From: Takakia lepidozioides
Lineage: Eukaryota > Plantae > Bryophyta
Assembly (NCBI GenBank): GCA_030704615.1
Contig: CM060731.1
Coordinates: 38,006,001 to 38,070,000 of the forward strand
Reading direction: 5' to 3'
DNA: 64,000 nt
How positions within the stretch are numbered: the first letter of the stretch is position 1; each line of letters opens with the position of its first letter. This document shows positions 30,592 through 56,624 of the stretch, in pieces. The translations under genes and the position numbers were made by a program. The notes below the pieces were generated by a model. That model was given only the letters and a program-made list of their open reading frames with translations. It had not been told where the DNA came from and ran no database searches.

Positions 30592-31170
30592 TGTTAGAGG
30601 ACTGCCAGGGACTTCGGCACTTTTATGAGTTCTGTGGGGTCTGGGACTTAGACATTTTTATGGGTTCCAAAGGGTACCCTTATTTTTTTACATAGACCAG
30701 TCATAGCCCATCACAGTCACACAGCCAGTCACAGCTTAACACAGCCGACACAGCCCATCACAGTCACAGAGCCAGTCACAGCTTAACACAGCCGACACAG
30801 CCCGACACATTCGCACAGCCAGTCACAGCTTAACACAGCCGACACAGCCCGACACAGTCGCACAGCCAGTCACAGCTCGACACAGCCCGACACAGCTCGA
30901 CACAGCCCGACACAGCCCGTCACAGTCCAACACAGCCCGTCACAGCCCGACACAGCCGCCACAGCTTTGCACAACCCTACACAGCCCGCCACAGCCTGAT
31001 ACAGCCAGTCACAGCTTGGCACAACTGGGGAACAGTTACCATTGGCAGGGAATGACTGTGGGGGAACGACATTTGAAAAAGGAACGTGTACTACAGAGAT
31101 AACGGTTAGTTAGGAAAGCGGTTAGAACGGCTAGTAAAGAGATAAAGCGGGAAGCGGGGTTTCCATCACT
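30592..31170 (+). repeat. Family A 3' LTR, truncated, preceded by PPT 30575-30591
   Basis: GAGAGGGGAAGGGGTAA|TGTTAGAGG; CACAGCC minisatellite 30700-31025. Confidence 0.88.
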
Positions 31171-33806
31171 AGGGGCATTGGCTACACCTTCAGCAAGCAG
31201 CAGTGGGACTAGTGAGACTGGTGGTACCGTAGCTACGACGTCCACCCAAGCCACTACCGCACCAGCTCCAGTACCCGTGCCCGCCTTCAACCCCGTTGTG
31301 GAGTTCTTCAGAGAGTTGAGAGGGAACTACCAAGGGGTGAGGACAAAGAAGTTGCGGAGCTTGCAAGAGTTCCAACGGAAGCCTACTAAGAGCTTGAGGG
31401 AGGCTTTCACTCGCATGAGGCGCTTGATAAATGTAACCCAAGGGATTACGGAAGCTCAGGCAGTCCAATTCTGGTATGGGGTATTGGACAAGGAGCTGAG
31501 GAGAAGGGTGCTAGATGCAACTCTCCTACAAGCGGCCCAACCCACTTTAGCAAATGTGTTTTTGTTGGCAGAGCGGATAGAGCTCAACATGGTGGAGGAA
31601 TGAGTGGTCATGGTGGGATTTGCTAAGGAGACACCATGGGGTAGTGGTGCTCCTAGTCAACCATTACCCCAACGTGCTCAAGGCAACAAGGGGGTCCAGG
31701 TGAAGCCCAGGGAAGGACAGAGAGGACCTCAGATGCAGGGGTCTCTCCCTTTATTTGTAGACCAACAACGGGCGGAGGTGGTGTGTTGGACATGTGGAGG
31801 ACCCCATGTCAAGAAGGATTGCCCAGAGGGAGGGAAAGGGCCGGCACATGCACAACCTGCACAGTTGCAGTGTGGGCATTGTGGCAAGCACGGGCATGGA
31901 GAGGCCCAGTGTTATGGTTTGCATCCTGAGTTGCGCCCATGCCAGTTCCAAGGGAACAATGGTGGCGAGGGCAAGGTGGAGCAGCCCAGAGAGGACAAGG
32001 TGGCCAGGCACGAGGTGCAGGCCAAGGGCAAGCTCAACATGGCCAAGGACCCGGAGGTCAGGGTGTTGACCAAGGCATGGCCAACCGGCTTCAGTAGCTA
32101 GAGCAGAGGCTCGTTGCCATGGCTACAGCTCAGGTGGTACCGGATCCAAGGCCGGATGGTCCACCTCTGGCTCCTGAGGGAGAAGATATGGGAGATATGG
32201 GATTCATGTACGGGGCAGCACTACCACTAGTGCAAGTGGAGTCGGCGGCAACAGTGACCCGAGGAGCAGCACGAGTTCCTGAGCCACGAGGTTGGATCCA
32301 CAGCGTGGGGAAGCAAGCCGTCAGGCCAGGCTTCCTCAGTCATTCACATTGGTGGAGACAGTGTCGACACCATCCATGGCACCTAGTTCTCGCCCGAGTG
32401 CTACCGAGGCGGAGATTACTATGCCATTGGGGAGAGTTACCTGACTACAGACACAAGCAGCACACACAAGAGGTCCTTTTGGATTGATGGTCGGCCAAAT
32501 CCTCCATGGGTCATGACACAAGGTCAAGGACAATGTGGTGAGGGCACATTCTTCGACCTATTTCAGCCTGTTTTGCCCTCTCATCAGACTCAGCCCTGAG
32601 ATGCATATTGAATTCTGTACGTTAGCTCGTTGGGTACCATGATTTGGTATTCTTCATGATGTTTACAAGGTTTTTGGTAGAGTAGCACCACTACCTGCTG
32701 CCAAGGCTACGACAGCTAGTGTGCTGCTAGGGGCGGCCACATCTGTGTGCCAGGCTCCATTGTTCTCGGCTACCATGATTGCGATGCCGGGGGTAAGACC
32801 AGCTGAGGTGTTCATGCTGGCAGCTACACTCTGTAAGAGTGGGGATGTTACTTCATCTTCTGCGGAGATAGTGGGAGGTGTAGTGCCGGAAAGATCCTCG
32901 GATTTGAGGGTCAAGATTGCCACAGCAGCGCCATGGCAAAGTGCAGCTGCCAGGTTGATGGAGCTGCCAGCTAGGCCAGCCATTGAGCGCGCCATGGTGA
33001 CACCTGGAATTGTCATGTTAGACAACCAGGATGACATTTTCTGTTTGAGTGAACCGGCAGGCAAGAGGTACCGCCCACTGTGGGTCTTGTTGGACTCGGG
33101 AGCTCAGCCATTGATGCTGGGCAGAGCTGCCATTGCAGGCTTGGGCCTCACAGAGGCGGATATGGAGCCTTGTCCTTTCCAGATACAGACGTCTCTGGGA
33201 GGATCGGAGCAGGCTCGGGGCATGACACGGCGTGAGTTGGCTATCAGACCACGGCCGGATCACCCTACAGATGGCTCAGTGATGCGAGCCAAGGCCATTG
33301 TGACAGACGTGGTCTCGTACAATGTCCTGGTTGGTGGGGCAGTGTTGTACCCCATGGGCTTCACCCTGGATTTTTGGGAGGCGTCAGCTTTCTATAGGCC
33401 TGGATGGCAGTTAGGGGAGGGTCGGCGTGTGCAGCTCCCTGTGACGTTCATAGGAGGAGTTGCGGTTGCCCAGCGAGGCAAGATGTCGACACTAGCAGCA
33501 TTCACAGCTGCAGTGAGTTGGCCTGGAGAGTTGCTTGAGGGCAACGCTCATTCAGAGGATGTGTCACCTCCGGTAGAGCAGGATGACATGTATGGTATGG
33601 CGGAGTTGCCTGCCATGGTTGCTCAGACTCCATTGTGGGGCACGAGCAAGGATTTGCAGCGGGTTGCTGATCGACGGGTGCAACAAGCCTAGGTGGAGGC
33701 TTTTGTACCATCAGGAGAGGAGGAGAGTGTGGGTACTGCACCAGGACCACCTCAGTTGTCTCCATTGGACACCACACCTATTGTGTGGCAGTATCCGGAT
33801 GAAGGC

Positions 33807-34770
33807 ATTTGTCTTCTAGACTTGTTTGGTGGGATCAGCACCGGATTGACTACTGTGTTACAGGCAGGTGTTCGAGTTCGGCGTTACCTGTATGTGGAGA
33901 GGGATGAGACTACACGACGCGTTTCACTTCGCCATGTTGCTCAGTTGGTGCTGCAATACCCTGAGTTGTTGCCGGTGTCTGCAGTTCGTGGATATCAGTA
34001 GGCCTTGCCAGCAGACATTTCGTTGTTGGGGGCGCAAGATTTGGAGCGGGTTGGCTCCATTGATCTGGTAGTGGCAGGTTGGCCCTGCCAAGGGCATTCA
34101 TTAGCCGGGCATGGCAATGGATTGCGAGACTCAAGGTCGGGTTTGTTTTGGGAGATGGTGCGGGTTTTGCGCCACTTACAGCTTCATCAAGCTGTATCTC
34201 CAGCATACATCTTGGAGAATGTGCCACTAATGGGTGATTCTCAGGCCAGGGTGATGGCCAGTGTGCATCAAGTCCAATCGTGGCTTGGGTCAGCAGTGTT
34301 GCTAGATGCAGCTGCAGTGGGGTCACAGGCTCATCGTCCACGACTATGGTGGACTAACTTGATGTCACTTGCACTACTCAAGCGTGCATTTGATGGGGTG
34401 CAGCGGCCACCAAACCTGACGGTGGATAGCATTTTGGACACAGGGAGGCAGTCTCAGCGTGTGAGACACGATGACCGTTCGCTTTTGGCAGTGGTCAACA
34501 GGATAGGTCAACCACGAGCAACATTACCTACACTGCTCATCTTCCCAGAATCGCATGCTTTCCGGGATAGTGGACCTGGTCTCCTGTGGGATGCTCAGTT
34601 GCAGCAGTTAGTGGAGCCTAATGTTGACGAGCGTGAGCGGGCGATGGGTTTTACCACTGGTACCATGGCGGTGCCGTCTCTTTCTGAGGCATCACGTCGT
34701 CAGGTGTTGGGGCAAACAATGGATCTCAATTGCTTGACTTGGATTATTAGCTTGGCTATGGCTGAGCAGC
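33807..34770 (+). pseudogene. DNMT3-like C5 cytosine DNA methyltransferase domain within Gypsy polyprotein
   Basis: Motif I LLDLFGGI, II YVE, IV DLVVAGWPCQGHS, V SGLFWE, VI ILENV, VIII AHRPRLWWTN, IX ERERAMGF, X RRQVLGQ; one premature TAG at 33999. Confidence 0.92.
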
Positions 34771-37700
34771 GTAGAGTGCGGCGTATACTTCTCTCGATGG
34801 TCTCTTTGCCTACCGAGACGGTACAGGCAGTGAGTGGGGGCGAGCATGTGAGGACCATGGGGTGCAGGCATCCATGGCACACGTGGGAGGTGCTCGAGGT
34901 TCAGAGGGAGTTGGCAGCCAAGGCGGCGGTGATGGATGAGGTTGGGGATTTTTCTCAGGTTGAGGAAGTCCTCGAGGATGAGATGATGGGGCAGGATGAG
35001 GCCTTATCATTGACTGAGCAGGTAGGGAGTACTGCTCAAGAGGTTGCAACATAGCAACCACTGGACGCGTCCTCTATCTCTAAGCCCACTGGACTTAAGG
35101 TTGCAGTTACGGAGGACAATTGGGAGCCTGACATTGGACCCATTATCACCGGAGGAGAGAGACAACGTATACGGCGGTTCCTGAGGGCTTACAGGAATTG
35201 CTTTGCCTTCAGTTTGAAGGACTTGGGAGCACTGAAGGGTCAAGAGATCCGTATTGCGTTGGCCACTGACACGCCAATCTTTTGGAGACCCTATAGATAC
35301 AGTGACATGGAGAGGTCTTTGATTCAGATGAGGACTCAAGATCTCTAGGAGGCAGCTTTGGTGGAGCTCTCTGGTAGAGAGTATGCTTCATCCAGAGTGA
35401 TGTCAGCCAAGAAGGATATCTATGGCAATTGGACGGAGAGACGTATGTGCGGTGATTACCGGCCTGCAAATCGTCAGACCAAGTCCGATTAGTATGTCAT
35501 GCCAACACCAGAGGAGATCTTTGATGCCATCGGGCATGCTAAGGTCTTTAGCACTTTGGATTTACGATCCGGATATCACCAGTTGCCAATCAAGGAGGCG
35601 GACAAGCAGAAGACGACATTTTGGGGGATCAATGAGCACGGCAAGGATTGCCTATATCAGTGGCGGTTCTTACCATTTGGGCTTAAGAACACTCCTGCAG
35701 AGTTTCAGAGAGTCATGGATAGGATTCTAGCAGGGGTGGACTTTGCTTAGTGTTACATAGATGACATCATCATCTTTAGTGCTACGGTGGAGGAGCATGA
35801 GAGACACCTTCAGGTGGTATTGGAGCGCTTGAGAGCGCATGGATTGAAGTTGCATCCAGGGAAGTGCAAGTTTTTCCACAACCAGATTGAGTATCTGGGT
35901 CACATGATACATCCTGGAGGATTGGGGGTACAGCAGACTAAGGTAGAGGCCATTGCACAAATTCCACGCCCCACGGACGTGAGCCAAGTTCGAGCTTTCA
36001 TGGGGTTGGCAAACTATTATAGACGGTTTGTCAAGGGATTTAGTGCCATTGCAAAGGCTCTAACCAAGCTGACCAAGGTAGACCAAGAGTGGCAGTGGGA
36101 AGATGAGCAGGAACGAGCTTTTCAAGAGCTCAAGGCAAGGTTGACTTCGGCGCCTATCCTGAGACGACCTATCAGGGGGTGTCCCTTTCAGCTGCATACG
36201 GATTGGAGCATGTTGGGGCTTGGAGCGGTGCTCACATAGGTGGATGATGAGGGGAGAGAGTTCGTAGTGGCTTATGCTAGCCGCTCGAACAACGCTGCAG
36301 ATGCTAAGTATAGCTCAGATGAGGGAGAGTGCTTAGCTGCAGTGTGGGCCGTGGCACACTTCAGGTGTTATCTATATGGCAATCTCTTCACCTTTGTCAC
36401 GGATCACCAGCCACTCAAGTGGTTGATGGAGTCAGACAAGCTTACAGGGAAGCTTGCACGGTGGGCACTCATACTCCAGGAGTATGACTTTCAGGTTGTG
36501 CATCGACCGGGTTTGGTCAATCGGGATGCGGATGGATTGAGTCGCAATCCATGCACGAGCCAGCAGGATGACACTGGAGCTCAGTGGCATGGTGAGACGG
36601 ACGAGGAGATGGTGCCGGGATGGCACGCATCTGCATTTTTGTGTATCTTGGCATCGGAAGGTCAGGTTGGACCTACAACAGGGATGACTGTAGATGGAGT
36701 GTCTGAGGACCCTGAGGCTAGTGATGAGCCAGGTGGTGCCAGAGATATATATGAGGATTTGGCTGTGTTGGACTACCTCCGTACAGGAGACACGACAACC
36801 ACTGTGACTGCCAGGGAGAGGGATCGGATCCTGCAACGAGCCAAGAGATTCAAGTGGGAGGGGATACACCTGCTCCGAGTATGGGAGGATGGTCGGGTGA
36901 GGATTGTGCCTCACCCCACACAGCGTGCACGGTTGGTGCGGCTTGCCCATGAGGAGTTGGGGCAAATTGGAGTGCGATGCACTCACAGTTTACTGCAGGG
37001 GCAGTATTGGTGGCATGGTATGCATAAAGAGGTGCAACAGTTTGTGGCTAGGTGCATGGTGTGTGACATGGTGTGTGCTTTATTCAACACCCCTACACCA
37101 TAGTTGCATCCTTTACCAATCATGGGATTGGGCTACAGGTGGAGTCTTGACTTCGCAGGACCGTTGCCACTGACTATGTGCCACCACAGATATGTGTTGG
37201 TGATGGTGGAGCACTTCTCCAAGTGGATTGAGTTGGTTTCATTGCTTGACAAGGCTAGTGAGGGGGCTGCGTATGCATTCTTGGATCGTGTGCTTAGCCG
37301 ATTCGGTGCTCCAGCTGAGGTACTCACGGAGAGAGTTCTTGGGGGAGTTTCAGGCTTTGTGTGATAAAGCCTTGATAGACCACCGCACCACTTCTCGAGA
37401 TCATCCTGAGGCCAATGGCTTGGCAAAGAGAGTTGTTCAGACGGTGAAGAGGGGTTTGCGCAAGTATGGCTTGTAGAAGGGACACCTAGGAGATTGGGAT
37501 CTTCAGGTACCTTGGTTAGCCATGGGCTACAGGTTCAGCAAGCAAGCATCACTTGCCTCCTTCTCACCATATTTCTTTCTCCTTGGCTGAGAGCCGGATT
37601 TGCCTGTAGCCATTCGTAGGGACACTGCTCAAGTCCTTAACCTTGACAATCCGGACATGGGTACGTGCATGTGATCAGCGTGCAGAGTTGTTCAAGAAAG

Positions 37701-38040
37701 TTATGCCCATGGCTTTTGAGAACCTGACCATTGCACAACACCGTGATATGTTGAGGTATGCCATTATACGTGGTGGAGGATATCGTCCTGGGGTTTGGAG
37801 GTTTAGCCCTGGTGACTATGTTTATTTGCAGCAGACTGCCCCTACGACCCTGGATGTCACTGGATGTCAGGGCGTGTTATTCTGAGGGTTCGAGAGGTGT
37901 TGCCCTCAGGAGTCCTGATCTTGGAGGGCCGGGATGGCATGACTTGGAAACACCATGTGCGTAATTGTGCGCCATGTCACCTTCCCAATGTTGATGGCAG
38001 AGTTGACCCAAACTTGGCAGTGGTACCTGCAGGTTTGAGG

Positions 38041-38184
38041 TGCATGCTCTGTGGGTCTGCCAAAGGGGCAGCCACCATGTTGGTGTATGATCGATGCTCA
38101 AGAGGTTGGCATATGGGATACTTGACACCACCTCTTGAGAGGGTTCCTGATGGAGATTGGTTATGTCCACACTGCTTGGGATAG
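38041..38184 (+). other. PHD finger at integrase C-terminus (copy 1)
   Basis: CMLC...(C/Y)DRC.RGWHMG(C/Y)LTPP..VPDGDWLCPHC; two Cys mutated to Tyr. Confidence 0.85.
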
Positions 38185-38444
38185 TGGCAGTGGACATGAC
38201 TAGAGGCAGCTAACAAGACATGGGAGGCCAAGCTCATAGGAGTCAATACACGAGATCCCAAGCTCAAGTTCACAGGTTGCAAGACGGCGACTAACGATGG
38301 GGCAACTCTTGCACCCGGCCTCTTGATCTATCGAGTTTGAGTGTAGTAGGGACAGTGGTGGAGGACTTAGTGAGGCTACGGTCACTATCACATCTTGTGG
38401 CTACCTGGACTTAGAGGGACCTAAGCACTAGCTAGGGGGGAGAT

Positions 38445-38620
38445 TGTGTGGACTAGCGACTGCCATAGTAGGCAGCATAGTGGCAGCCTAGTGACTGACT
38501 AGTTGTAGCCTAATGGTTGGACTAGTGGTGGACTAGTAGTATACTAGTGTGTGGTGTGCACATGTGTTGTGTGGTTTTGGACAGCGATGTAGTTGTGTAG
38601 CGATATGTATGCGCATGACA
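38445..38620 (+). repeat. Family B 3' LTR (176 bp)
   Basis: Starts TGT after PPT, ends GCGCATGACA where similarity to copy 2 stops. Confidence 0.7.
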
Positions 38621-39385
38621 AATCATTTGAACACAAACGATGGGTTCATCTTTTGAATCAATATCAATTGACCTGATACTCGACACGTACCTCTGACAAT
38701 GTATCTCGAACACACTCGCAATGTTTGAAAGCAATAAAAAATCATTTGAACAGCGAACGATGGGTTCACCCTTTCAATCAATTTTGATTGACTTCATACT
38801 TGAGAGGAACATGTGACAAAGGTATGTCGAACACACTCGCAAAGATTGGAAGCAATCAAAAATCATTTGTACAGCGAACGATGGGTTCACCCTTTCAATC
38901 AATTTCGATTGACCTGATACTCGACACGTACCTCTGACAAGGTATGTCCAACACACTCGCAATGTTTGAAAGCAATAAAAAAATCATTTGAACAGCGAAC
39001 GATGGGTTCACCCTTTCAATCAATTTTGATTGACTTCATACTTGAGAAGAGCATGTGACAAGGTATGTCGAACACACTCACAAAGATTGGAAGTAATAAA
39101 AAATCATTTGAACAACGAACGATGGGTTCACCCTCTGAGCCAATTTTGATTGACCGCATACTTGAGAGAAGCCTGTGAGAAGGCATGTCCAACACTCTCG
39201 CAAAGATACGAAGCAATCAAAATTCATTTGAACAGTTCACGATGGGTTCACCCTTTCAATCAAATTTGCTTCACCTGATACTTGAGAGGACCTCTGACAA
39301 GATATGTCCAACACACTCGCAAAGAATGAAAGCAATAAAAATTCATTTGAACAGCGAACGATGAGTTCACCTTTTTAATCAATTT
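38621..39385. repeat. ~120-bp tandem repeat, about 6.3 units
   Basis: AATCATTTGAACAGCGAACGATGGGTTCACC recurs at 38621, 38740, 38861, 38982, 39102, ~39221, ~39340. Confidence 0.92.
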
Positions 39386-39389
39386 CTAC

Positions 39390-40713: not shown

Positions 40714-42975
40714 TTGCAAAGATGTAAGGCAACAATTGAACAGCGAAATTTCACAAAATTGGGACATGTTCTGGCCGAAGAGGGTTGGGAGGACTTTCCT
40801 TTGAATTGCAAGTGGACATGGTTTCGATGCACAAAAATACGTGAAAATGCATCATATAAACTGTTTGTGGCCTTTGGAAAGACATGCGGTGCAAACGAGG
40901 CAAAATTGTTCGGAATTCGCTTCCTGCATGAACGAACATTTTCGGCATAGGCCACGTGAGGTGAGCCTTAAATTCTGGGGCGAGGAGTTGTACAAAAACC
41001 AAATTAACGACACCTTAGCAGCTATGGTGTATGTAGAGCTTGTTTTGCACAGAGTTGTGGATTGGCAAACCGCCACAAAGAGGAAGAAGCCGAAAGTATG
41101 GCCTGGTAGTGACATTCCCGACACTTTTGTGCAACAGCTTCAACCCACGGAGCAAGTGCAGGGTAAGTCTGCATTGTTGGAGCATGAGGCTTCAACGCTC
41201 GAATCAATGCAACCAAGTCTCATGAAAGAACTGGCCACACGAGACCGTCGAATCAAAGAATTGGAGGAGCTCGTTGAAAAGCAGAGGAAACAAATACTGA
41301 ACTTGCAAATGAAAGTGGAATCAACTTGCCATTCCGTCGATGTTTATAATTGTACCGCACCAGTCATCCATAGAACCGCCAACTATAAACAGATGCATAC
41401 TGAAGGGAGCCAAGGGGTAGGAGAAATGGTCATGGCAGATTCCAAAGCCAGGCCAATACCCTGGTATATGGAATACATTGTGCCAAAGGAACAACAAATT
41501 GTGAATGAAAGAAGTCGGAAAGGGAAAGAGGTCATGCTTGAATCTGGAGAATGTTCGAGGACAACCGTTCACACTGATTATTTTGGTGAATTGTATGAGG
41601 TGGTTAGGGAGCGGGATACTGCTAGGGCGGTTGCCTCCCGTTTGGCGCACGATATGGACATTCGGAGGTATGTACCAGGGCACTGGGAAAATTGGGTGTG
41701 GTTTGGAAAAAATTTGGCATCATGAGTACGAGAAAAGAAGTGGGCGTTGTCTCAACTACAAGAGATTGCAGGTATGCTAGGCGGCCTTTATCGAGACAAC
41801 ATTACCGCTAACTTGGAGAGGTATAACAATTATATTCGCAATAAGGAGAACTTGCAGTTAATTGGGTTCACCCTCTGGGCTGATGTAGAAGAAATGTTTA
41901 ACCGTTGTTCGCACACAATTTCTAATACCAACATGAGCATTAACTGGCCGGAACTAGAGCTTGAGGAAGAGTGGGATACGAGGCCGCGAAAATCAGCCCA
42001 TGTGAAACTCAATGATCGTACGGATATACCACAAAACCATGTGCCTTCATTCATCACAGATGGATTAGTATGCACGATTTGTGAAAACCCCTTTGGACCA
42101 GAGGAGCACACATGCTTGGGTCTTGTGGGCATTTCTTCCACAACACATGTCTTGTAACAGCTGCCCTTACTCGGTGTGCATGCCCAAAGTGCCATACGCC
42201 AATCCATCGTCAATACTATGAATTGTATGGCTTGGAGGAGATCATGCCAATAGGGTACGAATACAACAGACACAACTTGCCAATGGACCAAGAGCCTTTC
42301 TCGTTTGTCAATTTGCGGCATTGGGGTGAAGTCATGTTGTGGAATCCATATACAAGGATGCATGACCTACTTGCGGAGGATACAAGCAGAGAGTTCAACA
42401 TGGATACATTTTGGGTCACATCAAACTGGGAAATCACGAAATGTGCGCGATGCATACCCAATGCTGAAGAAATAGAACTGTTTTGCCGGCATTTTGGAGG
42501 ACATTGGAGTGAAAGAATAGGTAGGTTCTTCCGAATGCCAGAGTCTCCTGTGACAGGGGTGAATATGGAGAAATACGACGAACAACCACTTGGGAGGATG
42601 TCATTTCAACTCACAATGGAAAGACCATCCATAGAATATATACACCTCCTCGACGCACACAATGTCGATAGTACAGATGAAGAGGAGGAGGATGCAAAAG
42701 CGAGAGAGATGATGGATGAATATAAATCAACAATCAATTCAATGTTGAAGAACTGGAACATATTAGTGGATACCCCGTGGTCTTCCTTATTGGCATTTGG
42801 TGGATGGCCCAACAATAATTGCAGAATTGAATGCAACCTTTGGTTTCAACTACAATGTTGCTTGCAACTTACCTTCACTAGCACGGCGCCAAAATCAACG
42901 TGCCGAAGAAATTACAGAAGCACATTCATCTGTGACACAACGATTGATGGGAGGGGTGGAATATGCTTCTGTTGA
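40714..42975 (+). pseudogene. Frameshifted coiled-coil + RING-H2 finger gene, probably TE-borne
   Basis: Coiled coil RDRRIKELEELVEKQRKQILNLQ; CTIC...(frameshift ~42110)...CGHFFHNTC...CPKC. Confidence 0.65.
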
Positions 42976-43456
42976 TAGCGCTATCACGCTTTGATCCATG
43001 TTTCCTCTTTTTCCCTGATGAACTTCCCGTCCCAGTGCTAGACCCTGTTCCAGACATTGCTTGGTATGTTATGGCAAGAAAATGAAATCAGATCTTGGAA
43101 CAAACTGCACAAAAATAGATTGTCTCCCGACACCCCCCCTCAACTGGCCTAAACCCTTCCCCCTCCCAAATCGGTTTGTGCACCTTTTCGGTCACACGCT
43201 GGACGTGACTCCAAACCAATTCTCTCGTCAGTTCAAGGATAAAAAACTCAAAAATCTCCCCCCTCAAATGCCAAGCACCCTTGCCTAAGCCAATTCTCTC
43301 GTCAGTTCAGGGAAAAAAAAATCAAAGACCTCCCGCCTGCCCTTTTATACCCCTCCACCCTCCGCCCTGCCCATACCCCCAAACCCAACCCCCCACCCGC
43401 ATCCCGCCACACAGCGATCGCCCATCCCGCACGCGGCGCCACGTGGTGGTCCCGCC

Positions 43457-46400
43457 ACTGTGATCATAAAGATCATCTTCTGTATCTGTATCTTAACTCC
43501 TCTTATCAATCCCAATGGCTGTACACTTCTTTGATCTGCCATTGTTACTGTAAATGGGGCTGGTTTCATGTTACTTAGACCAAGCTTCTTCCTTAATTGG
43601 TCTGTCATGATATTTACTCCAGAGCCTCCATCTATCAGTACATCAGTTAGTTCTGTGCTTCCAATTCTCAATTGGATTACTGGCATAGAATCATCAAAGT
43701 CCATGACTGTTTCTCGCCCTTCCGGCTTCACATTATAACTGGTCACCTTGCTGTTCAGGTCTGTGTTTCCTGTCTCCTGGGCAATTCGATTGATTGCTTG
43801 ATACAGCCTGTGCCTACAATAAGGTGCCATAGCTAATAGCTATCCAATGGTAATTTCTGCTTTGGTCTGGCATATTACTTCAGCCAAAGTCTCTTCATTA
43901 CTTTGCATGTCTGCATCTTCCTTCTTCCTTTCTTCCTCACTCCCTTCTTTTTCTCCATCAGAATTAGAGGAATCTGCCACAGGAATATCAGTACTCTTTT
44001 GCATTTCCCTTATAGTATCTGCCACTTCCTTGTGCAGTTCCTTCTCATCTTTCCAAGTCTCTTCATCTTCAGGCATATCATTGCCACTTCCATTATCATC
44101 TTCTTCCTCTTCTACTGGAGGTATTAGTTTGGCTTTACTTCTTGTTACTATCATTGTACTTACTTCTGGTACAACACATGGCCTAACCATGTGAGCTGCC
44201 ACCACTGGGCCCTCATTCACAGGAGCTCTCATCTCATTCTGGTGTCTTATCCAGAATGAACAGGCTGCCTTGCGATGTCCTGGCTGATTACAATAGTAAC
44301 ATAGCTCTTCACCATTGGGTCCTCGCCCTTGGTCTGTTCTTGGATTATTTCTATAATCCTGATTCCCGGGCTGGTAATTCCCCCTTGGATTACCCTGATA
44401 GTTGCCTCTGGAATTTCCTTGGTAATTCCCTCTTGAATTACCTCTCCCTTCCATGCCATTGTTATAACCACCAGACCTACCATAGTGGTCCTGATCATTG
44501 TTTCTTCTTGGCTGGGGCTGCACCTGATGCACCCTTACTTGCCTAGGTTCTCTTGCAGCTGTCCTTCTGTTGTAGTAACAATTCTCAGTAGAATGGTTAT
44601 CCATTTTACAGATAGTACAGTGTTTCTCCTTCATGTGGCATTCTGTGGTGGTATGGCCTTCATTCTGGCACTTTGCACACCATACACCCTTCCTCCAATG
44701 TGTTGCAGCCTCTGTGGCATACTTCTTCAAGATTTCTTCCAATTTTTTTTCATAGTTATCCCTCTTCAATTTCTCCTTTCTCTTACTCTTTCTTTTTAGT
44801 TCTTGCTCTTCTTCTTCATCTGACTCATCCTCAGAGTCCTCATCTTTTTTTTTTCTCTCCTGAGCATTCCCAATTGCTCAATTCTGTTCGCAGTTTCAAA
44901 TGCCTCCTCCACTGTATTATGGGGTAACATATCCACTTTCTTTTGCAACTCTGGTCTTAGTCCACTCACAAACCAAGTCTTCTGTAAACCGGGTGCTGGT
45001 ACTGCAGCCAGCTTTTTCATCATCAATTCCATCTTCTCCATATACTCTTCAACAGTTGCATGCTTCTTCTGCTTCAGCTGTTGTAAACTTCCATACACTT
45101 CATCCTCAGTTTTACTTGTTCTGAACCTATTTCGAAATGCTGTATTCAAGCCATTCCAGGTTAAGAAATGATTATCAGGGAATCTTGCATACCATTCACT
45201 TGCTTTCTTGATAAGTGAACAAGGAAACAGTCTCATCTTGGCATCATCGCCATTCTCATTGTTCACTATACACATGTGCTCAAATTGGCTAATGTGTACA
45301 TCGGGATCCCCTTTTCCTGAATATATTGGAAAGGGTGGTTTGCCCGTGTTGGTTGTAACGCCATCTGTGGCCCTACCTTCTGCCCACTGACAGGTGCTGG
45401 CATCCTTGCTGTTGCTGGTCCTTCTGGACCTGTTGTTTTTGTGGTGGATCTTCCACCAAGTGGTGGCCCTTGAGCACTCCCTGCTTCTGGCCCCACGATA
45501 TTCACAGTATTCCCAGCTTCAGTTGCACTACTTCCCACACTCCCTGTCCCCCCAGAGCCAGATCCAGGCAGCCCGCCTGATCCCCTGAGCCGACACCTTC
45601 GTTGGCCTGTGATCCAAGTGCTCCACTTGATCCAGGTCCAACGGGTTGGGATGTCCTGGTTGTAGTCTCAACCTCAGCTATTGGGTCTACTTCTTCATAT
45701 TCTTCCTCTTCCAATTTCTTCTCTCTGTTTTCATCCTCCAAGTTCTGCCCTTGGGTTTCTTCTTCACTCATGTAACTCAACTGTAATGTTATTGGAGAGT
45801 CTGAATTCTCCGTTGGCTCTGCCACATCCTCTTCTCCTTCTTCACCTTCTGCTTCAGAAACTGGAGTTCCTGCTTTTGGTGTTCCATGCCAACTCTTATC
45901 AAAGATTTCTGTCAAATCTTTTATCCAAGGATGTACCTCAGATCTTTCACCTCGTGATTGATCTTCTTCCTGTACCAATTCCCTTGCAAAGAAACAGAAG
46001 GAGTGGCATCCAACTCTAGTTCTTCCGGTATAGGTGATGTACTCTTTGATCTTATTGGTGTGAGAGGTCCAGATGATTCCCCTATGTCTATTCCTCTCTC
46101 CCAAAGATATGGATAATTAGCTTTCAGATAGCTTTCTCTTTTTGCTGAATATCTCTGGCGTCTAGCTTCTCTTTCATCACTCATGTCCCATGTCTTTCAT
46201 TTCTTTTAATGTGGCAATAACCAAAACTCTCTTCTGTAATATCTCTCGTATATGCCTGGGTTTCTTTCAAGCTTCAATGCACCCTTGGCTATACTTGAAG
46301 TCTCCGTTACCATATAACCATATGGCAAACAAGTCTGAAAAGCTGTTCTTGGTGTGAGTTTGATCCACAAAATATCCTTTGGAATCCAATTCTTTACCAG

Positions 46401-47678
46401 TACAAGCTCTTCATGCATATGAGTATAAACATTCACCTTTCTTTCTTCCCAGCCTTCAAACTCTACTCGCTTAATGGATAGCAATGCTATCACATAAACC
46501 AATGTTGGTAACCAACGTGCTCTTCCTCTACAGGCTACCTGATAAATCTTTATCACTCCTTTCTCCAGACCCCATTCCGGATCAGCATCATGCACTCGCT
46601 TAAGAATATTTTCTTTACAACCGTCTGGCAATTCCAAGAACCTTTGAAAGAATTGTTTGGACAATCTTTCTTCCTTCGTTCCACAGGGAATTTGATTCAC
46701 TTCAAATTCTTTAATGGTCCAACCACCATGATCCCACCAGATGCCTGTCACATCTGGTTGTTCATGACTCAGTTCCCCAGTATGGTCGCCAAATGTCGCG
46801 CGGCTTTTACTCACCCATCCCTTCGCTATTCGAGGCGGAAACTCCAAGATAGAAGAGTTGGAAATCTCTAAGTACTCAGCCCGCGCAGAACAATCAGTCA
46901 TGACCTACAGCTAGTGTATCATGGGGGTGTTTCCTATTTGTTTCCCTTTTGACATTCATGTTAGCTACCTTACCATTTATAATTAAGTATCAGTTTGCTT
47001 TATCAATCTATTGGATTCCATCAACTCATCCATTCATTCCACAGCTTCACTCAGATCTCTCTACACAGTGTGATTGTATCGTAAAAGTATCCGATTATGA
47101 TTTATCAGGTATCAGGCCGAAGCCATCGTGTCTCTAATCTGCTCTACAATATCATTACAGCCTTGCATATAACAAGCATCTACTCATCATCTCTCTATCT
47201 TCACTTCCGTTCTTCATCTCTGCCCGATCCCCTCTCCTCCATGACCAAGAAGTCCTCCACCCAATGATATTTCCAAAATTCCCCGCTTCTCCCTTTATCT
47301 TCCTACCCGTGGTTCTAACCGTTTCCCTCACTAACCGTCGTCTGTGAACTAACATGTTCCCTTTGCAGGTGTTGTTCCCCACAGTCGTTCCCTGTCCTGC
47401 TCTCCGTTCCCTATGATCGTGACAGCTGTGTCAAGCTGTGACTGGCTGTGTGAAACTGTGACGGGCTGTGACTGGTTGTGCGACTGTGTTTGGCTGTGTC
47501 GGGCTGTGACTGGCTGTGTGGCTGTGTCGGCTGTGACGACTGTGACGGGCTGTGTTGGCTGTGTCGGCTGTGACTACTGTGACGGGCTGTGTAACCCCCC
47601 TCTATAGTGCGCTGCTGTCACCCCTAAGGCTCCTGTTGGTCTCAGTCTGTGCAAAAATTAAGGGTACCTTACAGATCC
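43457..47678 (-). mobile_element. Family A 5' portion (LTR 46794-47678, PBS 46774-46791, gag, protease), truncated
   Basis: ORFs 46206-46901, 44796-45275, 43840-44769, 43345-43830. Confidence 0.92.
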
Positions 47679-48245
47679 TGTGCCCTTTGCCTTCAACACT
47701 ATGAAAATGACCTCCTGCAGATCTTACACTAGAAGAGCTATGCGCTCTTTCTATACTGTGCAAAAGTTTCGGGTTACCACTAACATGTTTGCTTGCTCCC
47801 GAATCAACGTACCAATCTTCATCCTCGATTTCTGCAACAAGGGCATTCTTTTCGACTTCAAGTGTTGCCATCGCAGCTTCCAGAATTCTATTGTGGTATC
47901 TGAAGTATCACCCCCATCAGCTTCATCGTCAGGCTCATTCTCCTCTTTAATTGCGTTGACTTGTCGATTTCTGGCTTTGAGAATTTTTTCGTAAGGAGGC
48001 ACAGTTCTTTGCCCAATGACCAAACTTACCACATCTGTTGCACGTCATTGTCTGCTTTCTATCGCCAGTCTGCTTTCCTCCAAACTTTTGATCTCCCTCA
48101 GGCCTCCTTCGAAACTTCACCCACAAAGCCTCTTTGTCCTTCTTTTTGTTTTTCAGCTCCCTCCTGCTTTCTTCGTGTAGCAATTTTGCAGTCAGTTCAT
48201 CAAGTGTGGGAAGATCTTTTTGACTCAATATAGATTAAACATAAC
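47679..48245 (-). mobile_element. Ty1/Copia gag-protease fragment
   Basis: LDELTAKLLHEESR, CNRCGKFGHWAKNC, WYVDSGASKHVSG, VEGKG. Confidence 0.88.
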
Positions 48246-48277: not shown

Positions 48278-50160
48278 AGGGAGAGAAACTTTACAGCGTC
48301 CACAGGAAGGTGTTAGAGAGACAGAGAGAGAGGTGCGGGACATCGGACAGACAAAGGCTTCCAAAATGAGACGCAGAAAAAAGTCTTGCCTTTTGGTGTG
48401 CATGTAGTTGTTACAATTCATTATATGCATGTGGCAATTCCTTTGGAGGGACCAGTGGTGCAATAAAGAAAATTACAGATGTTCTGTATGTGCCTGGGTT
48501 GAGGAAGAAATGGTGGCCGGGGGCGAGGTGGAGCACCTCAAAGAGCATAAGGTGGTCAGGCATGAGGTGCAAGACGAGGCCAAGCACAACATGGCCAAGG
48601 TCGTGGAGGTCAGGGCATTGACCAAGGCATGGCCAACCGGCTTAGGAGGAACGGGGGGTGGACCCTCACGTCTTGGAGCTGGTACTACATGAGTTGTGGC
48701 CATGGCAGCAAGCCTCTGCTCTACCAACAGCGTCATCTTGATGGAGGAGACATGGCAGGCATGGGAGTCATGGGATTTATGTGCGGGGCAACACTTGAAT
48801 GGCCCACTTATACAGGTGGATTCTGCTGCAGCCGTGACTCGAGGAATAGCACGAGTTCATGAGCCACGAGGAGCAGAGGTGGAGTTAGATCCACAGCGTG
48901 GGGAGGCAAGCCGTCAGGCCAGGCTGCCTCAATCATTCACATTGGCGGAGACAGTGTTGACGCCATCCATGGCACATAGTTCTCGCCCCACGGATACCGA
49001 GGCGGAGGTTATTGTGCCATTGGGGAGAGCTACACATGCAGCGCCGATACCTGCTGCTAAGGCTAGTGCAGCGAGTGTGCTGTTGGGGGCGGCCACCTCT
49101 GTGTGTCAGGCCCCACTGTTCTCGGCAACCATGATTGCGACGCCGGGGGTAAGACCAGCTGTAGTGTTCAGACTAGCAACAACACTGTGTGAGAGTGGGG
49201 AGGTCACTTCATCTTCTGCGGAGTTAGTGGAAAGTGTAGTGGCGGAAGGATCCTTGGATTTGAGGGTCAAGACTGCCACGGCTGCGCCATGGCAAGCTGC
49301 AGCTGCGAGGTTGACGGAGCTGCCAGCTAGGCCAGCCTTTGAACGGGCTATGGTGACACCTGGAGTTGTTTTGTTGGATAAGCAGGATGGTGTTTTCTGT
49401 TTGAGTGGGCCGGCGGGCAAGAGGTTTCAGCCACTACGAGTACTGCTGGACTCGGGAGCTCAGCCACTTATGCTGGGCAGAGCTGCTATCGCAGGTTTGG
49501 GGCACAGAGGCGGACATGGAGCCTTGTTCTTTCCAGATACAGACATCTCTGGGGGGATCAGAGAGGGCTCGAGGCATGACACGCCATGAGTTGTTCATTA
49601 TACTACAGCCGAATTATCCTACAGATGGCTCAGTTATGCGAGCCAAGGCCATTGTGACGGACGCAATTTCATATGATGTGTTGGTTGGTGGGGCAGTATT
49701 ATATCCCATGGGCTTCACCCTGGATTTTTGGGAGGAGTCGGCCTCGTATAGGCCTGGATGGCAATCAGGAGATGGCCGTTGTTTGCAACTCCCTATGACA
49801 TTCATTGGGGGTGTTGCAGCTGCCCAGCGGGGCAAGATACCGATACTAACAGCCTTCACAGGTATAATGAGTTGGCTTGGAGAATTGCTAGAAAGCAATG
49901 CTCATGCAGAGAATGTGCCACCTCCAGCAGAGCAAGATGATATGTATGGTACGGCGGAGTTGCCTACCATGGTTGCTCACACTCCATTATGGGGCATGAG
50001 CAAAGATTTGCAGCAGGCTGCTGATAGACGGGTGCAACAAGCCTGGGTAGAGGCATTTGTACCGTCAGGAGAGGAGGAGAGTGCGGTGATTGCACCAGGA
50101 CCACCTCAGTTGTCGCCATTGGATACCACACCTATTGTGTGGCAGTACCCGGATGAAGAC

Positions 50161-51110
50161 ATATGCCTTCTAGACTTGTTTGGCGGGATCAACACTGGAT
50201 TGGCTACAGTGCTGTAGGCAGGTCATGTACAAGTTCGGCGTTACCTGTATGTGGAGAGGGATGAGACTGCACGACGCGTCTCACTGCGCTATGTTGCTAA
50301 GTTGGTGCAGCAATATCTTGATTTGTTGCCGGTGTCTGCAGTTCGTGGATACCAGCAAGCCTTACCAGCAGACATCTCTTTGCTGGGGGCGCAAGATTTG
50401 GAGCGGGTTGGCCCGATTCAATTGGTAGTGGCAGGTTGGCCCTGCCAATGACATTCATTAGCCGGGCATAGCAATGGGTTAGAAGACTCAAGGTCACACC
50501 TGTTTTGGGAAATGATTTGCAGCTTCAGCAGACAGACTCTCCGACATATATCTTGGAGAATGTGCCACTGATGGGTGATTCTCGGGCCAAGGTGATGGCC
50601 AGTGTGCATCAAGTGCGGTCTTGGCTTGGGTTACCAATGTTGCTGGATGCAGCTGCAGTGGGGTCACGAGCTCATCGCCCACGACTATGGTGGACCAACT
50701 TGATGCCACCTGCACTGCTCAAGCGTGCATTTGATGGGGTGCAGCGGCCACCAAACCTGACGGTGGATAGCATTTTGGACATAGGGAGGCAGTCTCAGCA
50801 TGTGAGACACGATGATCGATCACCTTTGGCAGTGGTCAATAAGGTGGGTCACCCACGAGCAGCATTGCCTACACTCCTCAGCTTTCCAAGATCTCATGCT
50901 TTCTGGGATGGTGGACCTGGCCTCTTGTGGGATAGCCAGTTGCAGCAGTTAGTGGAGCCCAATGCTGACGAGCGCAAGTGGGCGTTGGGTTTTACCACTG
51001 GTACCACGGCGGTGCCATCTCTTTCTGAGGCATCATGTCGTCAGGTGTTGGGGCAAGCAATGGATCTCAATTGCTTGACCTGGATTATCAGCTTGGCTAT
51101 GGCTGAGCAG
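50161..51110 (+). pseudogene. DNMT3-like methyltransferase domain, copy 2
   Basis: ICLLDLFGGI, LVVAGWPCQ, YILENV, AHRPRLWWTN, VLGQAMDL; stops and frameshifts. Confidence 0.9.
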
Positions 51111-54090
51111 TGCAGAGTACGGAATACACTTCCCTTGATGGTCTCTCTGCCTACCGAGACGGTATAGGCAGCAAGTGGGGGCAAACAGGTGAGGATCACG
51201 AGGTGCACGCCGCATCCATGGCACACGTGGGAGGTGCTCGAGGTTCAGAGGGAGTTGGCAGCCAAGGCGGCGGTGATGGATGAGGTTGGGGATTTTTCTC
51301 GGGTTGAGGAGGTCCTCAATGATGAGATGATGGGGTAGGATGAGGCATTGTCACTGATAGAGCAGGCAGTGGTCACTGCTCAAGAGGTTGCAGCATAGCA
51401 ACCACGGGACGCGTCTTCTACCTCTAAGCCTGCTGGACTCAAGGTTGCAGTCATGGAGAACAACTGGGAGCCTGATGTTGGACCCATAGTCACCAGAGGA
51501 GAGAGACGACGTATACGGTGGTTCTTGAGGGCTTACAGGAATTGCTTTGCCTTCAGTTTGAAGGACTTAGGAGCACTGAAGGGTCAAGAGATTCGCATTG
51601 AATTGGCCACTGACACGCCAATCTTTCGGAGACCCTATAGATACAGTGACATGGAGAGGTCCTTGATTCAGATGAGGACTCATGACCTCTGGGAGGCTGG
51701 TTTGGTGGAGCTATCTGGTGGAGAGTATGCTTCAGCCACAGTGATGCCAGCCAAGAAAGATGTCTATGGCAATTGGACGGAGAGACGTATGTGCGGTGAT
51801 TACCGGCCTGTAAATCGTCAGACCAAGTCCGATAGGTATGCCATGCCAACACCAGAGGAGATCTTTGATGCCATTGGGCATGCCAAGGTCTTTAGCACTT
51901 TGGATTTACGATCCGGATATCACCAGTTGCCGATCAAGGAGGCGGATAAGCAGAAGACGACATTCTGGGGGATCAATGAGCACAGGAAGAATTGCCTATA
52001 CCAGTGGCGGTTCTTACCATTTGGGCTTAAGAACGCTCCTGCAGAGTTTCAGAGAGTCATGGACAGGATTCTAGCAGGGGTGGAGTTTGCTCGGTGCTAC
52101 ATAGATGACATCATCATCTTTAGTGCTACGGTGAAGGAGCATGAGAGACACCTTCAGGTGGTATTTGAGCGCTTGAGGGCACACGGATTGAAGTTACATC
52201 CGGGGAAGTGCAAGTTTTTCCACAACCAGATTGAGTATCTGGGTCACATGATATATCCTGGAGAATTGGGGGTACAACAGACTAAGGTAGAGGCCATTGC
52301 ACAGATTCCACGCCCCACGGATGTGAGCCGAGTTTGAGCTTTCATGGGGTTGACAAACTATTATTGACGGTTTGTTAAGGGATTTAGTGTCATTGCAAAG
52401 GCTCTAAGCAAGCTGACCAAGGTGGACCAGGAGTGGCAGTGGGAAGATGAGCAAGAACGAGCTTTTCAAGAGCTCAAGGCGAGGTTGACGTCGGCGCCCA
52501 TCTTGAGACGACCTATCAGGGGGCGTCCTTTTCAACTGCATACAGATTGGAGCATGCTGGGGCTTGGAGCGGTGCTCACACAGGTGGATGATGAGGGAAG
52601 AGAGTTCGTAGTGGTTTATGCTAGCCGCTCGAACAACGCTGCAGAGGCTAAATATAGCTCATATGAGGGAGAGTGCTTAGCTGCAGTGTGGGCCATGACA
52701 CATTTCAGGTGCTATCTATATGGCAATCTCTTCACCCTTGTCACGGATCACCAGCCACTCAAGTGGTTGATGAACAAGGTGGCGCCAAAGATATACATGA
52801 GGATTCAGCTGTGTTGGACTATCTCCGCACTGGAGACACAACAGCCACTGTGATTGCCAAGGAGAGGGATCGGATCCTACAACGAGCCAAGAGGTTCAAG
52901 TGGGAGAGGACACACTGCTCCGAGTGTGGGAGGATGGTCGAGTGAGGATTGTGCCTCACCCAACACAGCGGGCACGGTTAGTGCGGCATGCCCATGAGGA
53001 GTTGGGGCATTCTGGGGTGCGACGCACTCATAGTCTATTACAGGGGCAGTATTGGTGGCGTGGTATGCACACAGAGATGCAACAATTTGTGGCTAGGTGC
53101 ATGGTGTGTGACAGGGTGCGTGCTTCATTCAACGCCCCTACACCACAATTGCACCCTCTTCTGATCATGGGATTGGGCTATAGGTGGAGTCTTGACTTCG
53201 CAGGGCCGTTGTCATTGACCATGCGCCACAACAAGTACGTGTTGGTGATGGTGGAGCACTTCTCCAAGTGGATCGAGTTGGTTCCATTGCTTGATAAGGC
53301 TAGTGAGGGAGCTGCGTATGCATTCTTGGATTGTGTACTTAGCCGATTCGGTGCTCCAGCTGAGGTACTCACGGACCAACGGAGAGAGTTCTTGGGGGAG
53401 TTTCAGGAGTTGTGTGACAAGGCCTTGGTAGACCACCGCACCACTTCTCGGGATCATCCTGAGGCCGATGGCTTGGTAAAGAGGGTTGTTCAGATAGTGA
53501 AGAGGGGTTTGTGCAAGTATGGCTTGCAGAAGGGACACCTAGGAGATTGGGACCTTCAGTTACCCTGGTTAGCCATGGGTTATAGGTTCATCAAGCAAGC
53601 ATCACTTGCCTCCTTCTCACCATACTTTATTCTCTTTGGCCGAGAGCCAGATTTATCTGCATCCATTCATAGAGAAGCTGCTACAATTCTCAACCTTGAC
53701 GATCCGGACGTGTGGACACGTGCATGTGATCAGCGTGCAGAGTTCTTCAAGAAAGTCATGCCCATGGCTTTCGAGAACCTTGCCATTGCATAACATCATG
53801 ATATGTTGAGGTATGCTACCATACGTGGTAGGGGCTATCGTCCTAGGGTTCGGAGATTTAACCCTGGTGACTATGTTTATCTGTAGCAGACTGCTCCTAC
53901 GACCCTAGATGTGACTGCAAGACGTACTATTTTGAGGGTTCGAGAGATGTTGCCTTCAGGAGTCCTGATCTTGGAGGGTCGGGATGACATGACTTGGAAG
54001 GACCATGTGCGTAATTGCGCACCATGTCACCTTCCGAATGTCGATGGCAGGATTGACCCAAACCTGGCAGTGGTACCTGCAAGTTTGAGG

Positions 54091-54234
54091 TGCATGTTGT
54101 GTGGATCTGCTAGAGGGGCAGCCACCATGCTGGTGTGTGATCGATGCTCAAGAGGTTGGCATATGGGATGTTTGACTCCACCTATTGAGATGGTTCCTGA
54201 TGGGGATTGGTTATGTCCGCATTGCATTGGATAG
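54091..54234 (+). other. Intact C4HC3 PHD finger at integrase C-terminus (copy 2)
   Basis: CMLCGSARGAATMLVCDRCSRGWHMGCLTPPIEMVPDGDWLCPHC. Confidence 0.92.
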
Positions 54235-54491
54235 TGGGAGTTGATACAACCATGGAAGGCAAACAAGAAATGCAAGGCCAAGCTACTAGGAGACCAATAC
54301 ACGAGATCCTGGCTCAAGTTCACAGATTGCAAGACGGCGACTAACGATGGGGCTACTTTTGTACCCGACCTCTTGGTCTATAGAGTTTGAGTACAATAGG
54401 GATAGTGATAGAGAACTTAGTACGGCTGTGGCTATTACTTCTTGTAGCTATCTGGAGTTAGAGGGACCTAACCACCAGCTAGGGGGGCGAT

Positions 54492-54576
54492 TGTGATAGA
54501 CTACTTTATTGTGCATATATGTGTGGTAAAGTTTGGATAACGATGTGGTTGTGTAGCGATACGTATGCGCACGACA
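54492..54576 (+). repeat. Family B 3' LTR (85 bp)
   Basis: TGTGATAG after PPT; ends GCGCACGACA. Confidence 0.65.
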
Positions 54577-56624
54577 GCTGTCAAGTTAAATAAACACAGT
54601 GTGAAACTAACTAGAATAAATCTAGTTCTGAAAGAATTGTGAGGTGATATCAGAGATTGAGGCAAGTGCAGAAGGGCCGGCTACCATGTTTGGCTTGCTT
54701 GGGCAGTGCTCCAGACTCTTGGGTATGTGCCCCTTCAATATCTTTTCACCTCCAATATTTTAATCATGCTGTGCATGTGGTACTTGCAACACTGTGTCCC
54801 GGTGGGCTCCCCTTAGCCTGCCACGCATTGGTTTTACAAAAACATTATGACATATCTATTTTTCATGTTTCAAGAGCTTATAGTATCCATTGGATGCTGG
54901 CCTACCTAGTGATGCATTGTTCTGCAGTAAAATTAACTTGCTTGTCTATATTGCAAAAAAGCAGGGCGGCTCAAGAGCTATGGCGTAGTGGCTCACATGT
55001 GGGGCCACTTGAAGGCGTCTCCTCGAGTGGCCTTCAAAGTACGGGCATCCAGTTTGCCAACTCCTTCTACCTTTTCTCTCTCACTACAACAACAGTCCAA
55101 GAATGTGGCCCTTGCAGTCGTGAAAATTGCAGCTCTAGTTTTCACCGGGTATCGCTTCCAAGATACCACTAGACAGTCCGATGTTGTTGAAATACAGCCC
55201 CATATTTTCTTTTCATACCTTCTGGTTACACCAGTTACCTCTCTATGTTTAGAGGATAGAAGAACATATTCTTGGATGCTTTGTGAAATGCTCTGAAGTT
55301 TATATCTGAACTCGTCCGCTATATGTATCATGCCTGTAGGTAGTGAGGGCATGTGCATGACACTCAGTTTAATTTTGGCAGGAAGATTTTCTTCATCGAG
55401 AATACAATAGCCTGGAAGTAATAACCATGCGGACTAGCTAAGACTTTTGAGGTGGCCTACATTCAAAGCATGGGCCTGAAGATCTAGTGTTAGAGGATCA
55501 GTACATACGCTAACACAAGATCTTCAAGTGCATGCATTGGATAAGGCTTCACAGGTAAAGACATCAGCGAAAAAATTTACAAAGAGGTTTATGGTGACAT
55601 CCTCAAATCTGCAATTGTATCAGATGTCATTCACGACACTACCCTCATGTCTATATATGCTGAACGGAGCTGTCCCATTTGACAGATTGATTACCTTCGA
55701 GATATTACATGTTCATATGTAAAGGGGGCAAGTGTTATGGTGTACCAGCCCTGACTTTGGCCCACATGCAAGGCACTTGGTGCCTGGGCATGCCAGTGGG
55801 TTCAACTCCCACTTGGGTCTTGCACTGAACTTGTATTCACTTTGCAAAGAAGCCTTCCCCTTTTGGTTGCACTTGGAAATTTTTATATGAACTTGCAAAC
55901 AATACACACAACTTTGACCAACATTTTAAGACTTGGGCATTTTTCTCTCCAACATTTAGTTGGACTTCAATCACAAATTTGGTGTGTTCCCCAAATGTGG
56001 CCATTGACTATATTTGGTTAGAGACATGAATTGGGGTTTAGTCAAAATTCTCTGTTTTTACTATTTCTGATTTAGAAAAGTTTGCAGCGGGATGGTATGC
56101 AAATTTGGCAGTCTTGCCATAGTTGATCATAGCTACTTTGCTTTTAGCAAGGGTGGCTATTGGATGGCAAAAGTAGAATAGCCAGAAATATTGTTCACAA
56201 CTTCTTTACCCCCATCCAAGTAAGGTACAAAGGATGCCCCATCAAATCTGCATATTTTGAAGTGAAAATTTTCAGACATATGCTTGACTTGATTATGGAC
56301 TAGAATCCATTCCCAATTTCCCATGTTTTTTGGAAAATATTTCCGTGGTTTATTTTGCCATCCAACATTTGACAGAGCCAGCTATGTTGATTTCACCATT
56401 GGCCCAAGATCAAACTTTATAATCTCAGAGATCCAACGGTGGTTTCCTGTTTTGTTTTCGGCATTGGATGCGGAAGGTGTGGGCATCCAACCCTACGGTG
56501 GACAAGACTGGTTCGTCCACAATCTAGAGCTATGGTCCCCAACCTGCTAGGGGGTCTGCCAGGCCAATTTCCAGCCCACCCAGGGTCCTTTAAGGGTTAA
56601 TATAATAGTTTCACATGATTCTTT

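Follow-up and report, generated by a model that had tools for sequence, protein, structure and literature searches.

Copy 2, one of two related elements in the window (the whole 64,000-nucleotide stretch of Takakia lepidozioides DNA analysed here), is a dead copy of a high-copy Ty3/Gypsy retrotransposon. In this family a DNMT3-like cytosine methyltransferase (DNMT) domain and the reverse transcriptase (RT) have evolved under purifying selection, and a conserved stop codon between them likely makes Gag-protease-DNMT the major product and RT-RNase H-integrase-PHD the minor one. As a whole, we consider this account probable. That the DNMT is a family feature under selection is not a new conclusion, as it repeats the published Klebsormidium result in a new lineage. 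The additions made here are the conserved read-through-type stop that ties the DNMT to Gag, the land-plant range, and split element ends with integrase-type target duplications. The original prediction overlooked both the stop after the DNMT and the split-repeat ends.

Architecture and state of the two copies

Copy 2 extends from 48509 to ~54627 and is decayed and truncated; all features described here are on the forward (+) strand. Its domains follow the order gag remnant-protease (PR)-DNMT-RT-RNase H (RH)-integrase (INT)-PHD, which includes the PR-RT-RH-INT order of Ty3/Gypsy elements and is identical to the order in copy 1 (31160..38620), a member of the same family by nucleotide alignment. 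The shared PR-DNMT-RT architecture that had been predicted was therefore recovered, Pfam matches and motif order agreeing in both copies. The 5' end of the element and most of gag are gone from copy 2: the 3' remnant of gag with the gag-protease spacer (48509..49355) is 74% identical to 31958-32440 and then 88% from 49040, and no gag-core or zinc-knuckle match was found in this copy. The aspartic protease (49356..49833; LLDSGA, with DSG at 49449) carries a 2-nt deletion after 49501, and its assignment is supported by a weak Asp_protease_2 match, under the cut-off, in the relative L020. Downstream of the DNMT are the stop in its TAG CAA CCA context (51396..51404), which is common to both copies, the RT (51519..52334; YIDD at 52098, RVT_1 E 1e-33), a partial RNase H (52368..52772; Pfam) followed by a deletion of ~300 nt of RNase H and spacer, the integrase with its H2C2 and rve parts (52801..53886; Pfam), which has a 1-nt deletion after 52914, and a PHD finger (54091..54225; PF00628 E 4e-11) at the end of the second frame.

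The DNMT3-like C5 cytosine methyltransferase domain of copy 2 (50137..51101) was recognised by Pfam (PF00145), motifs, dN/dS and permutation. The predicted retention of WPCQ, ENV and RPR was confirmed: LDLFGG is at 50170, WPCQ at 50437, ENV at 50556, HRPRL at 50673 and GQAMD at 51051, and we take these readable motifs to be I, IV, VI, VIII and X. The domain has stops at 50215 and 50449, the latter directly 3' of WPCQ, and a 16-nt deletion after 50514; the copy 2 DNMT is dead. DNA_methylase was above the Pfam cut-off in both copies (copy 1, E 9e-13; 5' piece of copy 2, E 2e-6), and the 3' piece of copy 2 alone (50472-51164) gave no Pfam match. The many nucleotide differences that had been claimed between the copies were also seen, identity being 88.2% over 3751 nt and 86.5% over 1746 nt, with 113 differences in 310 DNMT codons, 57 of them at third positions.

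In copy 1, the 5' end is replaced by a fragment of another element. Its DNMT (33783..34760) is a single frame with one internal stop at 33999, and this sequence, with X at the stop, was the query for the searches and the fold prediction. The TAG CAA CCA junction aligned to that of copy 2 is at 35052..35060. The 16 best PDB sequence matches of the domain were DNMT3A (best E 3e-11), followed by DNMT3B/C and then M.HhaI. The predicted structure (pLDDT 90.8, pTM 0.90) had DNMT3A as its best PDB match over the whole length (E 7e-19, TM 0.73). By best match in both sequence and predicted fold, the domain is DNMT3-like; it is intronless and its motif order I-IV-VI-VIII-X is unrearranged, as in Gypsy-DNMT3 elements.

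The neighbourhood is rich in other repeats. Tandem arrays of 120/241-bp and ~100-bp units lie directly 3' of copy 1 (38620-39386 and 39589-39955), and positions 1-31159 and 43200-47700 hold several copies of another Gypsy family, nested and for the most part 92-98% alike; this family has 10-bp tandem arrays and gave no DNMT or PHD match. Open frames of 296-470 codons at 40805-42975 and 29141-30553 had no Pfam match. CpG o/e was 0.46-0.50 in the DNMT elements (31160-38440, 48500-54490), 0.21-0.23 in the neighbouring Gypsy family (compared over 18700-20700 and 24500-28100) and 0.28 in the flank.

Selection on the DNMT domain

The check proposed with the original prediction was a comparison of dN/dS between DNMT and RT. 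With stops and gaps masked, the Nei-Gojobori estimate between copy 1 and copy 2 was 0.29 for the DNMT (95% 0.19-0.42; 307 codons) and 0.25 for the RT, so that the ratio is well under 1 across the DNMT; it was 0.23 for the integrase, 0.16 for the protease and 0.38-0.46 for the linkers. When transitions were weighted 4x, the values became 0.39 (0.26-0.56) for the DNMT, 0.34 for the RT and 0.31 for the integrase. The signal was weaker in the 3' part of the DNMT alone, at 0.39 (0.19-0.78), or 0.52 (0.26-1.03) with transition weighting. Since 425 of the 542 differences between the copies are transitions, we used a permutation null that kept base and CG/CHG/CHH context (2000 permutations). Under this null 71.1±4.4 amino-acid-changing codons were expected in the DNMT and 50 were observed, a number as low being reached in 0 of 2000 permutations. 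Protease, RT and integrase gave similar results, RNase H gave P 0.004 and the 3' part of the DNMT P 0.03; the three linkers were not significant (P 0.15-0.40).

Lower ratios were found among less decayed relatives: DNMT dN/dS was 0.13 for L020/L019 and L020/L030, 0.11 for L019/L030, and 0.09-0.10 for L041/L047 and L033/L047. Near-identical siblings gave 0.49-0.98 for the DNMT and 0.64-0.68 for the RT, which is decay alone, after insertion. From the contrast between 0.09-0.13 in relatives and 0.49-0.98 in siblings we conclude that the window copies come from two active lineages, the value for the window pair being the outcome of selection along these lineages plus later decay. The claim that the methyltransferase was under purifying selection before both copies decayed is supported by the pairwise dN/dS, by the permutation and by the less decayed relatives. 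Synonymous divergence between 33000-37320 and 49356-53370 falls from 0.60 in the protease to 0.28 in the DNMT and 0.16 in the RT, and this drop suggests recombination between subfamilies.

Independence of the insertions and element ends

Homology between the copies is limited to the interval from 48509/31958 on the 5' side to 54576/38620 on the 3' side, and no flank homology was found beyond either limit. As the flanks of the two copies are unrelated, segmental duplication is excluded. The original prediction held that both LTR and flank differ. The part on the flanks stood; the part on the LTR is correct only to a degree, because neither copy has an LTR pair within the window and the repeat that follows the polypurine tract (PPT) is homologous between them (57 nt at 84%). 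The canonical arrangement of two LTRs, PBS and target duplication was not found in the window, where the PPT is present. At the 3' end of copy 2 (54481..54627) the PPT and repeat B, which runs to 54576, are followed after a 2-nt spacer by repeat A, which begins at 54579; the junction resembles those of L002, L030 and L031. Repeat A is cut near 54627, where runs X1 and X5 show loose ends. In copy 1 the element stops with the terminus of repeat B, joined to a 120-bp satellite. These different repeat ends explain why the LTRs had seemed to differ. No second B repeat, upstream A repeat or gag N-terminus was found for either copy within the window, and for this reason no target duplication is readable there.

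Complete ends were visible in relatives. Elements of both clades have split repeats in the order A1-body-PPT-B1-A2-B2, complete in L031 and L052 (close clade) and in L044, L047 and L053 (distant clade), and 4-bp target duplications were found in 5 of 6 relatives with both ends visible. Of this layout the window retains only B and the start of A in copy 2 and B alone in copy 1. The split-repeat loci were L031 (1679-10805), L052 (2857-12066), L047 (2634-11948), L053 (2280-11949), L060 and L044, and the regions of the window compared with them were 54481-54627 and 38434-38620. Their termini are TGTCA..GACA, with an internal CA-NN-TG junction. The A1..B1-A2-B2 layout corresponds to a two-LTR circle opened inside an LTR, despite the DDE integrase; the single-B ends of copy 1 and several loci look as if B1 and B2 had recombined.

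Relatives and abundance

The protein search returned 42 longer matches and 141 of similar length, of which 120 were listed. Named relatives were from Marchantia polymorpha, M. paleacea, Calypogeia fissa, Riccia sorocarpa and three Sphagnum species, and distantly from Haematococcus; the named Marchantia, Calypogeia, Riccia and Sphagnum proteins were 46-74% identical. Among the matches listed there was no vascular plant name and no named Klebsormidium sequence. On the nearest named relatives alone, a bryophyte host is likely. Metagenome contigs gave 304 confirmed relatives, 80 of which were kept; these loci were found by DNMT motif patterns, which biases them towards motif retention. The order PR-DNMT-RT was present in metagenome relatives wherever both sides were visible, and the DNMT and RT trees of 18 selected rows had their starred groups in common (FastTree only, midpoint-rooted, 18 and 32 selected rows). 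Unrelated flanks, PR-DNMT-RT in the relatives and congruence of the trees in their main groups thus bear out the view that the methyltransferase transposed with the element as a family feature.

Summed contig depth in run X1 was 4.5-5.8e5 for the DNMT, 2.8-3.6e5 for the protease and 1.0-1.1e6 for the RT, against 82-308 in unique-looking flank bins; this depth is not a count of copies, and the window may itself derive from X1. We take the depth to mean no more than an order of thousands, with the DNMT as a normal part of the element. A viral source of the element was considered and gave no sign, the 45 loci on viral contigs being weak and partial matches only (best E 2e-15, 22-48% identity).

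A second, distant DNMT-Gypsy clade (L041-L078, L080) shares ~40% DNMT identity, has GWECQ and ENT motifs, and has an open DNMT-RT linker without the stop. Four proteins under the source's name Haematococcus lacustris (P0034, P0036, P0037, P0039) have a related DNMT between RNase H and integrase, and P0034, P0036 and P0039 of these also have a terminal PHD.

A conserved stop between DNMT and RT

Between 32685 and 37320, 14 codon positions have a stop in either copy and only one is common to both, the TAG at 35052/51396, which stands 41-42 codons before the RT and is followed by CAA CCA. We compared 62 sequences whose DNMT and RT are no more than 1 kb apart. In the RT frame, 30 of the 33 from the close clade have a stop followed by CAR-YY, against 0 of the 29 from the distant clade. 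The close-clade misses were L023 (linker deleted), L026 (stop lost; counted here though the identity cut put it among the distant sequences) and L037 (CAR lost); L079 has its match at another distance. The number of independent lineages is smaller than these counts: 27 of 31 close-clade loci are one peat-moss-type family, matched in its linker by protein P0031 of Sphagnum fallax, and some of these loci are probably one insertion assembled twice, so that the lineages number four or five, not thirty.

The exact CAR-YYA context is found in the window copies, L019, L020, L030 and L071, and the peat-moss-type family has CAA-CCC, one letter off the consensus. The contexts CAA-CCA, CAA-CCC, CAG-TTA and CAA-TCA encode different residues (QP, QL, QS), and CAR-YY is kept across lineages whose synonymous sites are saturated. 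The linkers measure 354, 408, 417, 468 and 477, in each case a multiple of 3. L020 is made up of two frames, both unbroken, with 1369 codons for Gag-PR-DNMT, 1047 codons for RT-RH-INT-PHD and this one stop joining them. No variant at 2% or more was listed at 51396-51404 among 513 run-X1 contigs. Proteins of Marchantia (P0003, P0004, P0009) and Calypogeia (P0002, P0087) end 80-82 residues after the DNMT, which is where the peat-moss-type stop lies. No conserved RNA structure was found 3' of the stop against mononucleotide shuffles, z being +0.9 and -0.5 for the window copies, -0.6 for L002, -2.3 for L020 and -2.6 for L030. One contig, from a run that is guessed to be RNA but may be DNA, is continuous across the stop and carries no weight here.

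For TMV and other plant viruses, a CAR-YYA placed 3' of the stop has been described as enough to cause read-through (PMC2194720, in part). The TAG likewise stands in frame between two open frames, and low-rate read-through by ribosomes, as in TMV-type signals, is likely on the pattern of conservation. Two open frames with one in-frame stop are also found at the SIRE1 pol/env and MuLV gag/pol junctions, and the TMV-type signal has its CAR-YYA directly 3' of the stop, as here. In SIRE1 and MuLV the stop stands before env or after gag, whereas here it comes behind the protease and a captured enzyme (PMC2194720, in part).

Proposed mechanism and alternative explanations

We propose that Gag-protease-DNMT would be the main product, ending at TAG-CAA-CCA, and that RT-RNase H-integrase-PHD would be a minor product made by read-through of the stop; this division, with the replication enzymes supplied by read-through, is likely from the frames and their junction. 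The protease inside the particle would release the DNMT, packaged in many copies per particle, and the DNMT would methylate cytosines in the element's newly made cDNA ahead of its integration, and a new copy would thus arrive pre-marked. For this predicted enzyme, many-copy packaging and methylation of cDNA before integration are an evenly balanced proposition. The PHD finger may tether the integrase to chromatin. Elements of the distant clade do without the stop, and Gag-level DNMT is therefore not needed by all such elements. The published argument on retrotransposon-borne DNMTs assumed DNMT and RT in one ORF.

The alternative that survives best, somewhat unlikely in our judgement, is that the DNMT is conserved for a role that is non-catalytic or does not concern cDNA: RNA or DNA binding in the particle, host chromatin methylation in trans, or self-limitation. 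Such alternatives are listed in the 2018 paper, in which KnitGypsy-Dnmt3 showed no activity in yeast (PMC5890265, in part). In the same direction point motif IV of the distant clade, which is GWECQ and not GWPCQ, and the CpG depletion of both window copies, which host methylation would explain equally well. However, every unbroken close relative inspected (L002, L019, L020, L030, P0001-P0003, P0016-P0022) retains the catalytic Cys, ENV and motif VIII, and the related SymbioDIRS-Dnmt3 domains methylate CG de novo (PMC5890265, in part).

It is also conceivable, though quite improbable, that the element and its selection are as described and the RT-integrase part is reached by splicing out the stop, as in Ogre, or by separate initiation. 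The automatic gene models P0006 and P0031 join DNMT to RT and skip the stop region, but they skip different stretches, and an intron would not need to keep CAR-YY beside the stop, to hold its length to a multiple of three in five lineages, or to leave the frames open on its flanks. In the peat-moss-type family an ATG lies two codons past the stop, yet from the stop to the start of the RT no Met occurs in copy 1, L020 or L030. As Tca2 shows, a stop in frame is not necessarily a local read-through signal (PMC2194720, in part). A last reading is refuted and has almost no chance of being right: that the two copies arose by segmental duplication, or that a host DNMT3 fragment was captured a single time and carried along passively, the common stop being an inherited lesion. 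In its favour, both copies are broken and lie 16 kb apart, and the linkers are nearly neutral. Against it stand the unshared flanks, dN/dS well under 1, and the recurrence of the domain and the stop both among lineages whose synonymous sites are saturated and in an element that has no other stop.

Comparison with known systems

KnitGypsy-Dnmt3 was described from Klebsormidium nitens by de Mendoza et al. (2018; PMC5890265), who reported purifying selection with Ka/Ks under 0.2, found no methylation by its domain in yeast, a result they deem inconclusive, and counted 33 DNA_methylase genes in Klebsormidium. As far as the consulted part of that article goes, their survey table contains no liverwort or Sphagnum and the main text does not contain 'PHD'. 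The window family shares with KnitGypsy-Dnmt3 the Gypsy domains with an intronless, non-rearranged DNMT3-related domain, and purifying selection, the Ka/Ks of less than 0.2 being matched by relatives (0.09-0.13) and the window pair being at 0.29; the split direct repeats A1..B1-A2-B2 are likewise DIRS-like in both (PMC5890265, in part). Unlike KnitGypsy-Dnmt3, where DNMT, RT and RNase H are in one ORF, the window family is split by the in-frame stop and has its DNMT with Gag; its relatives occur in land plants and are far more abundant. The single ORF is found in the distant clade and in P0030. Because the window family works like KnitGypsy-Dnmt3 but lacks the single ORF, it is a variant of that kind, assigned by features rather than by descent.

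Ogre elements similarly express the protease with Gag, apart from RT-RH-INT, but unlike the window family they have a long spliced-out spacer and an extra RNase H (PMC6317226, in part); neither methyltransferase nor PHD is named in the consulted part of the main text of that survey. SymbioDIRS-Dnmt3, which is active on CG (PMC5890265, in part), and EpiLTRs are also retrotransposon-borne cytosine methyltransferases, but these are tyrosine-recombinase elements or carry DNMT4-related domains with DAM and chromodomain (PMC5890265; bioRxiv 10.64898/2026.05.21.726589; both in part). As far as these sources go, they and the window family are independent captures. Literature searches, with subscription journals mostly not covered, found no paper on land-plant DNMT-Gypsy elements or on the stop, two papers mentioning 'streptophytes' without detail, and no relevant passage in the consulted parts of PMC9477723, PMC11982613, 10.1101/363937 and 10.1101/2021.11.30.470311.

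Significance

Split ends would escape LTR-pair finders, and DNMT-Gypsy elements inflate DNMT gene counts in bryophyte annotations. A conserved recoding signal by which the DNMT is made at the level of Gag argues for a bulk role inside the particle, and Marchantia polymorpha, with its relatives of the element, offers a model plant in which to test this. The fullest reading is a tentative one, and we consider it rather doubtful: a widespread bryophyte retrotransposon lineage in which programmed read-through would put an active DNMT3-like enzyme into the Gag product and so into each particle at capsid-level numbers, where it would methylate the cDNA, and which would integrate from a circularly permuted intermediate. 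If this holds, the thousands of copies in each genome would amount to a source of de novo methylation that has gone unrecognised in seed-free plants.
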